A DNA stretch of 13,462 nt, the filler included, from Pseudomonas phage phiNN, in NCBI RefSeq assembly GCF_002925585.1. It is 3 parts of 3 records of this genome, joined end to end, with 100 filler letters (N's around TTAATTAATTAA, not from the genome) between each part and the next. Parts side by side here need not be neighbours in the genome. Positions count along the whole stretch, not along the records: positions 6,604 to 10,417 come from NC_042069.1; 2 more parts are not named here. One strand, 5' to 3'. Below, in pieces: positions 7,099-8,107 of the stretch. Numbering within the stretch: the stretch's first letter is position 1; every line of letters starts with the position of its first letter. The notes under the pieces are model-generated. The model did no database searches. It saw nothing but the letters and a program-made list of their open reading frames with translations, and was not told the origin of the DNA. The translations under genes were made by a program, and so were the position numbers.

Positions 7099-7106
7099 GG
7101 TGAGCT

Positions 7107-7334
7107 ATGCATGACACGTCCAAGGCGCCCCAAGATGCAGCCGGATCCGTGGACATCGAGGATTCGCGTCCTCGGCTTTTCGACCGGGTTCATCATCATG
7201 GCCTACGGGTGTGGGATACTCTCAACACCCGCATGCGCGGTTCTTTCACAGTTGCGATTCGTGTAGAGCATTCACTGATGCTCCTCATCGGGTACGCTGC
7301 GCTTGGCGGCTACGTTGCCAAGTTTTGGGGGTGA
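7107..7334 (+). CDS. Hypothetical 75-aa protein with hydrophobic C-terminus
   Basis: TAAGG (7096-7100) lies 6 nt upstream. C-terminus is LMLLIGYAALGGYVAKFWG and the stop is 1 nt before the next ATG. A competing 51-aa frame runs 7111-7266. Confidence 0.5.
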   Translation: MHDTSKAPQDAAGSVDIEDSRPRLFDRVHHHGLRVWDTLNTRMRGSFTVAIRVEHSLMLLIGYAALGGYVAKFWG

Positions 7335-7335
7335 T

Positions 7336-7431
7336 ATGTTCGCATACGTTGCCAAAGCGGTAATCCTGTACTCTGCAGGTGTTCTGGCCGGTCAGCTTTA
7401 TGCTCACCTCACAAAGGAGGATCGCGAATGA
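7336..7431 (+). CDS. Hypothetical 31-aa single-TM membrane peptide
   Basis: MFAYVAKAVILYSAGVLAGQLYAHLTKEDRE*. G-rich SD-like GGGGGTGA upstream, and an ATGA overlap with the next ORF. Confidence 0.5.
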   Translation: MFAYVAKAVILYSAGVLAGQLYAHLTKEDRE

Positions 7432-7562
7432 AGAAGTGGCCTGCTTTCCTGCTCGCCCTCGTTTGCTTGACCGGTGGTGTTCTAACCGGGCAACCCGCTC
7501 TGGTCACAGCCGGCGTGTCGTTCGCGACTAACGCCGTGACTGCGGTCCAAGGTGGTGAATAA
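7428..7562 (+). CDS. Hypothetical 44-aa membrane or signal-peptide-like protein coupled to gene 6
   Basis: MKKWPAFLLALVCLTGGVLTGQPALVTAGVSFATNAVTAVQGGE*. Near-perfect SD AAGGAGG at 7414-7420, 7 nt before the ATG. TAATG overlap with the gene 6 start. Confidence 0.68.
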   Translation: MKKWPAFLLALVCLTGGVLTGQPALVTAGVSFATNAVTAVQGGE

Positions 7563-8107
7563 TGTCCCTTTTTGGTTCGTTGTTCAAAACGATCAAGAAG
7601 ATCGTTAAGAAAGTGATCGACATGATCAAGAAATTCATCAAGAAGTTTTGGTTGATTATCTTGATTGTCGTGATCATTGTTTTCGCTCCCTACATCGCGC
7701 CTCTCCTTGTTTCATGGGGGATGCCGACGCTTGGCGCGTTCTTCTCAACGATCGCAACAACCGTTACCCCGTACGTAACCGGGGCCCTCTCGTGGGCTTG
7801 GTCTGGCATTTCAAGTGCTGGCTCTGCCGCGTATGGCGCGTTCTCCTCGCTTTCGTTCGGTACTCAGGCTTCTCTGGTTACCGGCGCGGCAGCGTTGATC
7901 GCTCCTGAGGAAACCGGTCAGCTGATCGGTGATGTCGTTGAAACAGTTGGCTCCGCAGCCGGCTCGGTTATTGGTGGTATTGCTGACGGTGTCGGCGGTC
8001 TCATCGGTAACCTTGCGAAGAAAGTGCCAGCATGGGCATGGCTTGCGGGTGGTGGTGCACTTGTGTGGTGGCTTTTGCCATCCGATAACGGACAGCGAAA
8101 TGGCTAG
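7562..8107 (+). CDS. P6: Fusogenic envelope protein and spike anchor P6 (181 aa)
   Basis: Lys-rich amphipathic N-terminus followed by TM segment WLIILIVVIIVFAPY, the conserved GAAALIAPEET motif and a Trp-rich C-terminal TM, as in phi6 P6. Confidence 0.93.
   Translation: MSLFGSLFKTIKKIVKKVIDMIKKFIKKFWLIILIVVIIVFAPYIAPLLVSWGMPTLGAFFSTIATTVTPYVTGALSWAWSGISSAGSAAYGAFSSLSFGTQASLVTGAAALIAPEETGQLIGDVVETVGSAAGSVIGGIADGVGGLIGNLAKKVPAWAWLAGGGALVWWLLPSDNGQRNG

Follow-up and report, generated by a model that had tools for sequence, protein, structure and literature searches.

Open reading frames between genes 10 and 6

The genome of Pseudomonas phage phiNN was analysed as one window of 13,462 nucleotides (nt), a concatenation of the segments L, M and S with runs of N between them that corresponds to no natural molecule. 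Segment M starts at window position 6604, and M nucleotide x is window position x + 6603. Subject of this study is the gap on segment M between gene 10, coding for the holin-like membrane protein P10, and gene 6, coding for the fusogenic membrane protein P6. In KJ957165, a record 100 % identical to segment M of phiNN, P10 (M 325-495), P6 (M 959-1504), P3 and P13 are annotated, and M 496-958, equal to window 7099-7561 (463 nt), carries no annotation. The equivalent interval of the phi6 reference (496-964) is likewise without annotation, as are the gene 10-6 gaps in the records of phi12 and phi13. The gap is probably a conserved cassette coding for four small single-pass membrane proteins, which one ribosome relay would read from gene 10 to gene 6.

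A first inspection of the DNA without database searches, here called the sequence-only reading, had placed a chain of three open reading frames (ORFs) of 75, 31 and 44 amino acids (aa) in the gap. All three were found again in the sequence and in the ORF listing (Table 1), with the junctions TGA (7332-7334)-T-ATG (7336) from the 75-aa ORF to ORF-C, ATGA at 7428-7431 from ORF-C to ORF-D and TAATG at 7560-7564 from ORF-D to gene 6. The AAGGAGG Shine-Dalgarno (SD) site and the MKK start of the 44-aa product were likewise present. Left out of the sequence-only reading was the best conserved gene of the locus, ORF-A, which is embedded in the 75-aa ORF. The two start codons ATG 7107 and ATG 7111 lie out of frame and 4 nt apart (ATGcATG), and an SD-like AAGGTGA is located 3 nt before the first and 7 nt before the second. 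The C-terminal part of the 75-aa frame, termed segment B, shares 34 nt with the end of ORF-A. Calculated SD duplex energies were -9.7 kcal/mol for ORF-C and -11.6 kcal/mol for ORF-D.

Table 1 Features of the gene 10-6 interval of phiNN (window positions)
Feature	Position	Strand	Remarks
Gene 10 (P10, 42 aa, holin-like membrane protein)	6970-7098	+	Context; chain begins at the P10 stop
AAGGTGA, SD-like	7097-7103	+	Overlaps P10 stop TAA (7096-7098)
75-aa ORF (frame 0), ATG start	7107-7334	+	Segment B at its C-terminus
ORF-A, 51 aa	7111-7266	+	+1 frame, embedded in the 75-aa ORF
Segment B, C-terminal 33 codons of the 75-aa ORF	7233-7334	+	Hydrophobic, from internal ATG 7233
ORF-C, 31 aa, ATG start	7336-7431	+	Start 1 nt past the stop of the 75-aa ORF
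AAGGAGG, SD site of ORF-D	7414-7420	+	7 nt before ATG 7428
ORF-D, 44 aa, ATG start	7428-7562	+	Adjoins gene 6
Gene 6 (P6, fusogenic membrane protein)	7562-8107	+	Annotated; end of the coupled chain

A hydrophobic segment had been claimed for each product. The best 19-residue Kyte-Doolittle means were 1.36 for the C-terminal part of the 75-aa ORF, a marginal value, 1.59 for the 31-aa and 1.78 for the 44-aa product. Together with the conservation in the proposed frames presented below, these stretches bear out the view that the gap codes for small hydrophobic proteins. The ORF-C product has an N-terminal hydrophobic helix followed by a charged tail; the ORF-D product has a basic MKK start, a hydrophobic helix and an acidic end, and its P-x-L-[IVM]-x-x-G-[VM] stretch is conserved. 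With 167 ORFs of at least 25 aa in the window, the mere presence of open frames says little. The ORFs by themselves are within chance, therefore conservation was examined as the real evidence.

Conservation in Pseudomonas cystoviruses

Seven phages were compared: phiNN, phi6, phi12, phi13, phi2954, phiYY and phiZ98. At the level of codons and protein alignments, the comparison shows that the cassette frames are under purifying selection and common to these seven Pseudomonas cystoviruses. With high confidence, the ORFs of the cassette are real genes.

Judged from the alignments, ORF-A is the most conserved product of the cassette. A core of 35 aa aligns without gaps in all seven phages. For the codon-position and identity figures phiYY was omitted as a near-duplicate of phiZ98, giving 15 pairs. 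The mean amino-acid identity of the core was 0.66; read in the remaining two frames, the core gave 0.31 and 0.32. The corresponding means across phages were 0.41 for P10, 0.32 for B, 0.41 for C and 0.31 for D. By codon position, 21/10/31 of 35 columns were variable, and the pairwise differences summed to 184/81/305. Sixteen residues of the core are invariant among 6 sequences, and the family is described by the motif D-P-W-x-x-R-I-R ... G-x-x-x-G-F ... C-G ... A-C-x-V-L-S. In the protein, the N-terminal flank is basic (net +5), the single hydrophobic helix contains an invariant GxxxG, and two cysteines, spaced by 8 residues, are likewise invariant. In the phiNN-phi6 alignment, the changes in the first half of the gap fall on third positions of the ATG 7111 frame and not of the ATG 7107 frame.

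Database searches with ORF-A gave tblastn E values of 1e-10 to 2e-6 against phi6, phi12, phiYY and phi13, and queries with the phi12 or phiNN protein found all Pseudomonas cystovirus M segments in the phage collection except that of phi8. A word-index protein search with ORF-A yielded no candidate. The profile search of 1.84 billion proteins returned the phiZ98 protein orf10-c and one further protein of 44 aa (E 8.9e-13). The latter, P0002, is encoded on an assembly contig of 1553 nt; it is without the DPW..RIR part and retains GF.IGF...SYGCG.LST.ACAVLS, a pattern that points to a cystovirus so far unsampled.

The ratios of nonsynonymous to synonymous substitution rates (dN/dS) between phiNN and phi6 are given in Table 2. 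The sequence-only reading had proposed frame conservation and dN/dS in phi6 and other cystoviruses as a check on the chain. The check turned out well for B and ORF-C and failed for the N-terminal half of the 75-aa ORF, whose first 42 codons are without protein-level selection.

Table 2 Substitutions between phiNN and phi6
Region	Differences by codon position (1/2/3)	dN/dS
ORF-A (7111-7266)	16/11/26	0.23
First 42 codons of the 75-aa ORF	22/13/10	1.7
B (7233-7334, last 33 codons)	10/5/16	0.19
ORF-C	9/8/19	0.24
ORF-D	21/20/26	0.83
P6	70/45/94	0.26
P3	329/304/433	0.28
P13	31/23/49	0.16

Profiles built from the homologues in other phages were searched against the 369 six-frame peptides of at least 20 aa in the window. 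B was the top match (E 2.7e-4 without phi6 and 1.4e-11 with phi6 in the profile), and so were ORF-D (E 1.2e-9, without phi6) and ORF-C with a profile from phi2954 only (E 1.9e-4); the next-ranked peptides in these searches had E values of at least 0.2. Conserved in the B family is a hydrophobic C-terminus of about 30 residues, which closes shortly ahead of ORF-C or ORF-D. Homologues of ORF-C were present in phi6 and phi2954 (602-709) and absent in phi12, phi13, phiYY and phiZ98; the similarity is M-[FL]-A-[YF]-[VI]-x-[KR]-A-V-x-x-Y in a position between B and D. An ORF-D homologue precedes gene 6 directly in all seven phages, with extra ORFs intervening in phi2954. The linkage of genes through overlaps of stop and start codons, claimed for phiNN between P10 and gene 6, has its equivalent in the relatives: in six of the seven phages, all except phi2954, the ORF-D stop and the gene 6 start overlap. 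All seven have a frame-0 ATG 4-7 nt ahead of the ORF-A start, and TAAGG is found at the gene 10 stop in phiNN, phi6, phi12, phiZ98 and phiYY. In Pfam-A and PHROG, no family was matched by ORF-A or the 75-aa ORF, and matches of C and D stayed below threshold (C in PHROG with E 0.13, D to DUF3040 with 13.6 bits at a cut-off of 24.7). ESM Atlas was uninformative, with best scores of 0.84 and 0.87 to unnamed clusters. The predicted complex of ORF-A with B scored 0.02 against a mark of 0.32.

The relatives differ in the annotation of the locus. phi6 and phiNN are distinct species with a nucleotide similarity of about 70 % that fades past M nt 779. The phi6 counterparts occupy M 504-968 in matching place, frames and order: ORFs of 73 aa (504-725), 53 aa (508-669) and 48 aa (822-968) and a 33-aa ORF with an internal ATG start and its end at 829 align with phiNN, with identities of 61 % for A, 64 % for B, 55 % for C and 30 % for D. 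In the sections drawn on here, Del Curto et al. (2026, PMC12819732) report four hypothetical phi6 genes with transmembrane domains (TMDs) downstream of P10, of 73, 53, 33 and 48 aa, found by inspection of ribosome-binding sites and TMHMM; the 73-aa and 53-aa ORFs were taken as separate genes. We paired the phi6 ORFs with these genes by length. A comparative analysis of the TMD genes is not part of sections 3.1, 3.3, 3.5 and 4 of that paper.

In phiZ98, four small ORFs are annotated in the interval, orf10-d/c/b/a. The hypothetical proteins orf10-c, -b and -a (UYE96695, UYE96694, UYE96693) are homologues of ORF-A, B and D and lie in matching order between the P10 homologue and P6. ORF-C is missing, B is annotated from a GTG, and no frame-0 ORF is annotated from the upstream ATG. 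The gene 10-6 intervals of phi12, phi13 and phi2954 are 316-681, 443-784 and 354-1273. The sole annotated ORF inside the phi2954 interval, P16 (YP_002600767.1; 358-594), is the frame-0 ORF just past gene 10 with a hydrophobic C-terminus; embedded in its +1 frame is ORF-A, which is unannotated and is the conserved gene there. Table 1 of Qiao et al. (2010, PMC2834669) lists P16 without significant similarity to phi12 or phi6. Two extra ORFs lie between D and P6 on segment M of phi2954 (914-1293), one of 43 aa with a hydrophobic end and one of 81 aa. The start context of the 43-aa ORF is the one given for 'gene 6' in Table 2 of PMC2834669, and GenBank places P6 at 1274-1612. The only annotated ORF at the phiYY locus (segment M 246-695) has 149 aa and runs antisense to P10, ORF-A, B and D. 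In the phiYY paper, high-performance liquid chromatography-mass spectrometry of virions was matched to 20 predicted ORFs, the small plus-strand genes not being among these. This experiment was unable to match the small genes because they are unannotated on the plus strand.

Natural variants, scans for further relatives and neighbouring genes

A contig of 3,830 bases from public sequencing run X2 spans 6940-7700 with 102 differences, 7 gaps and about 86 % identity; the third-position counts rest on the 40 of 100 differences that were listed. Third positions accounted for 10 of 14 listed differences in P10, 7 of 10 in the zone of ORF-A only (7111-7232, ORF-A frame), 8 of 10 in the zone of B only (7267-7331, frame 0) and 2 of 2 each in ORF-C and P6. 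Three second-position changes among the listed differences in the ORF-A zone precede the DPW motif, and several of the B-zone differences are common to runs X3 and X5. Two pairs of compensated indels, 7520/7525 and 7536/7541, occur in ORF-D, thus its frame is preserved outside those short stretches. No RNA run was among the listed public sequencing runs that hold the locus.

Scans of IMG/VR recovered only phiNN, phi6, phi2954, phi12, phiYY and phi13 among the matches listed; four other 17-mer matches were due to chance, and the scan with the P6 alignment gave low-complexity patterns among the matches listed. A metagenome scan with P10 found one divergent cystovirus-like M contig, L012 (3908 nt; 1-3117). 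Its P10 is 81 % identical to that of phiNN and the downstream genes differ. The analogous interval of L012 holds hydrophobic ORFs of 51 aa (735-890) and 39 aa (904-1023) without detectable homology. A weak match to C (E 0.047) lies upstream of P10, and the large ORF of the contig had no match in the phage collection. phi8 is without a gene 10-6 gap.

P10 of phiNN matches PHROG 17279 (E 1.2e-25). Its coding sequence in GenBank begins at GTG 6928 (6928-7098, 56 aa), and every P10 homologue aligns from ATG 6970 (42 aa), upstream of which a GAGGAA is located; to judge from these alignments, the annotated start probably makes the protein too long. P6 of phiNN and of phi6 share 53 % identity. The junctions between the segments in the window (6504-6603 and 10418-10517) each consist of 12 real bases between two runs of 44 N.

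Proposed translation of the cassette

In the proposed relay, the AAGGTGA overlapping the P10 stop would serve both out-of-frame starts. Initiation at ATG 7111 would produce ORF-A, a one-helix protein with its basic N-terminus predicted on the cytoplasmic side. Initiation at ATG 7107 would produce the 75-aa protein, the first 42 residues of which may be a mere stop-free spacer and the last 33 residues, B, a conserved hydrophobic helix. From the end of the 75-aa ORF, 1 nt before ORF-C, ribosomes could pass to ORF-C, from the ORF-C stop to the ORF-D start and from the ORF-D stop to the start of gene 6. Both start codons are probably in use, and the relay probably feeds gene 6. The view of the 75-aa product as a conventional protein is not supported, since only its last 33 residues are conserved. 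As the source of B we favour translation of the whole frame from ATG 7107, also because ribosomes would then have a continuous track from gene 10 through ORF-C and ORF-D to gene 6. Frame 0 is free of stops across ORF-A in all seven phages. In 20,000 synonymous shuffles of ORF-A per phage (phiYY omitted, 6 lineages), the chance of an open frame 0 was 0.345, 0.138, 0.695, 0.225, 0.541 and 0.258, with a product of 0.001 under the assumption of independent lineages.

Rather unlikely, in our estimate, is a synthesis of B alone (33 aa) from the internal ATG 7233, e.g. by re-initiation after termination of ORF-A at 7266, with the upstream part of the 75-aa frame untranslated. This reading would suit the lack of protein-level selection on the N-terminal 42 codons, and the annotation of B in phiZ98 follows it. 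At the aligned site, an xTG codon is present in six of six phages with split frames (ATG in phiNN, phi6, phi13 and phi2954, GTG in phiZ98 and phiYY); however, the invariant Ala-Cys codons of ORF-A leave little choice at this site. The internal start lacks a consistent SD site (duplex energies of -1.5 to -6.5 kcal/mol) and sits 34-46 nt upstream of the ORF-A stop, and its use would leave both the openness of frame 0 and the upstream frame-0 ATG, each found in seven of seven phages, unexplained.

In phi12, A and B are encoded directly in one frame of 69 aa. One additional G in a CCGG run (CACCGGTT versus CACC-GTT; phi12 segment M 449-460) shifts B into the frame of ORF-A; without it, B would return to frame 0, its position in the other phages. 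With a single sequence available, the extra G may reflect a genuine fusion of the genes or an error in sequencing. The fused frame has a bearing on a further reading, in which ribosomes undergo a programmed -1 frameshift within the 34-nt overlap and join ORF-A and B to a two-helix protein. An A-AAG beside a stop codon can be shift-prone in bacteria, and ORF-A ends with TCA AAG TAG in phi13, phiZ98 and phiYY. On the other hand, phiNN (TTC GTG TAG) and phi6 (ACT CTT TAG) end without a shift-prone codon, a canonical X XXY YYZ heptamer occurs in none of the six overlaps of the split phages, and the phi12 fusion depends on one base in one sequence. We consider such a frameshift very improbable.

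Hardly any credence is left for chance frames in a non-coding spacer conserved through constraints on the RNA, e.g. packaging or replication. In favour of a spacer, phiNN, phi6, phi12 and phi13 have no annotation here and short ORFs are common in the G+C-rich phiNN genome, but substitutions are third-position-biased in the proposed frames, homology on the protein level persists where nucleotide similarity is gone, and 10 substitutions in 15 records of phi6 laboratory variants, too few to measure selection, include no nonsense or frameshift mutation. Codon-position bias, dN/dS, tblastn, profile matches and the X2 variants all contradict a spacer.

Possible functions

The products may act in the inner membrane of the host or in the viral envelope, accessory to the lysis/envelope module of P10. 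An accessory role together with P10 in lysis or envelope biogenesis is the best current guess. Among the roles offered by the sequence-only reading were outer-membrane disruption and holin/antiholin regulation. Superinfection exclusion, envelope assembly and the setting of P6/P3 stoichiometry are further candidate roles from that reading. Published tests of the phi6 counterparts speak to outer-membrane disruption and to holin function, according to the sections of PMC12819732 drawn on here. Placed behind the lambda holin-endolysin, the counterparts caused no outer-membrane disruption in Escherichia coli or Pseudomonas syringae, and upon expression of the whole phi6 segment Mg-stabilised spherical cells remained. 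On this basis a role as outer-membrane disruptor is disfavoured. For a holin-related function there is a weak hint in one host only: with the phi6 TMD genes added to holin and endolysin, a few of the P. syringae cells were spherical, compared with none of the E. coli cells. Del Curto et al. take the spherical cells as a possible role in holin function (PMC12819732).

We regard it as very doubtful that the cassette is the missing outer-membrane disruptor of these phages, with ORF-A as an o-spanin-like lipoprotein embedded as Rz1 is in Rz. The embedded +1 architecture would agree with such a role. ORF-A also has L-[AST]-[YFV]-[GS]-C after the hydrophobic run, with a second invariant Cys 8 residues on. 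The canonical lipobox consensus is [LVI][ASTVI][GAS]C, from which the motif of the family deviates at -3 and -2; in phiNN the site reads M-A-Y-G-C and is off the consensus at the same two positions. The resemblance to a lipobox is taken as a lead only. The phi12 fusion would combine lipobox and C-terminal helix, which is the layout of unimolecular spanins. An i-spanin consists of an N-terminal TMD and a long periplasmic domain, whereas the largest product of the cassette has 75 aa with its hydrophobic stretch at the C-terminus, and none of the products contains a domain that would span the periplasm. The strong conservation of the putative signal peptide (DPW..RIR, GxxxG) would be unexpected for a cleaved leader. 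Finally, the phi6 counterparts failed to complement the lambda holin-endolysin in both E. coli and P. syringae (PMC12819732).

As a tentative idea, which we hold to be possible and not yet likely, one ribosome-binding site with two out-of-frame starts would yield ORF-A and the 75-aa B product as partner peptides in fixed proportion and these, with C and D, would be the missing co-factors of the P10 holin or couplers of envelope and lysis. It is equally tentative that phi12 has both partners as one fused two-helix protein.

Several observations weigh against a translated cassette with a function in lysis or the envelope. In the sections of PMC12819732 considered, the phi6 counterparts had no clear lysis phenotype in E. 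coli, and the hint from P. syringae is weak, the authors themselves terming the activity low. The literature on ribosome profiling and proteomics yielded no direct evidence of translation for any of the phages. ORF-D is weakly conserved between phiNN and phi6 (dN/dS 0.83, 30 % identity), and tblastn with ORF-D matches only itself. The 73-aa frame-0 ORF of phi12 would not carry B, the small product of the openness chances depends on the assumption of independence, and A, B and D are absent from L012 and phi8.

Significance and comparison with known systems

Among enveloped double-stranded RNA phages, phi6 and its relatives are the models, and their gene list has been treated as complete. If the tentative idea of partner peptides and co-factors holds, four proteins would be added to the list of the phi6 group after 50 years. 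According to PMC12819732, in the sections used here, P10 by itself does not act as a holin, and an outer-membrane disruptor is not known. The four unannotated membrane microproteins, which show purifying selection across seven phages of three clades, with ORF-A at 66 % mean identity versus 41 % for P10, are candidates for the partners still lacking in lysis or envelope formation. The annotation would be corrected where the gap is empty (phiNN, phi6, phi12, phi13), where the less conserved frame was chosen (phi2954) and where an ORF of the opposite strand was chosen (phiYY). The out-of-frame twin starts would represent compact overlapping coding in an RNA phage. The literature found, from which the phiNN description and the 1988 phi6 M sequence paper are outside, contains nothing on family-wide conservation, the primacy of ORF-A, twin out-of-frame starts or direct detection of the products; in the parts covered, the reviews PMC10674327 and PMC9697746 contain nothing specific to the gene 10-6 interval.

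Two systems of phage lambda invite comparison. The lambda S holin and antiholin arise from an in-frame dual start, as two products differing at the N-terminus. The cassette resembles this arrangement in having two close start codons behind one ribosome-binding site. ATG 7107 and ATG 7111, however, are in different frames, therefore the two products are no holin/antiholin pair of this type. Unlike the lambda spanins, the products of the cassette are far shorter and without a periplasmic domain. The likeness to Rz/Rz1 is in the genetic architecture: a small membrane gene is embedded in the +1 frame of another, beside a holin-like gene.

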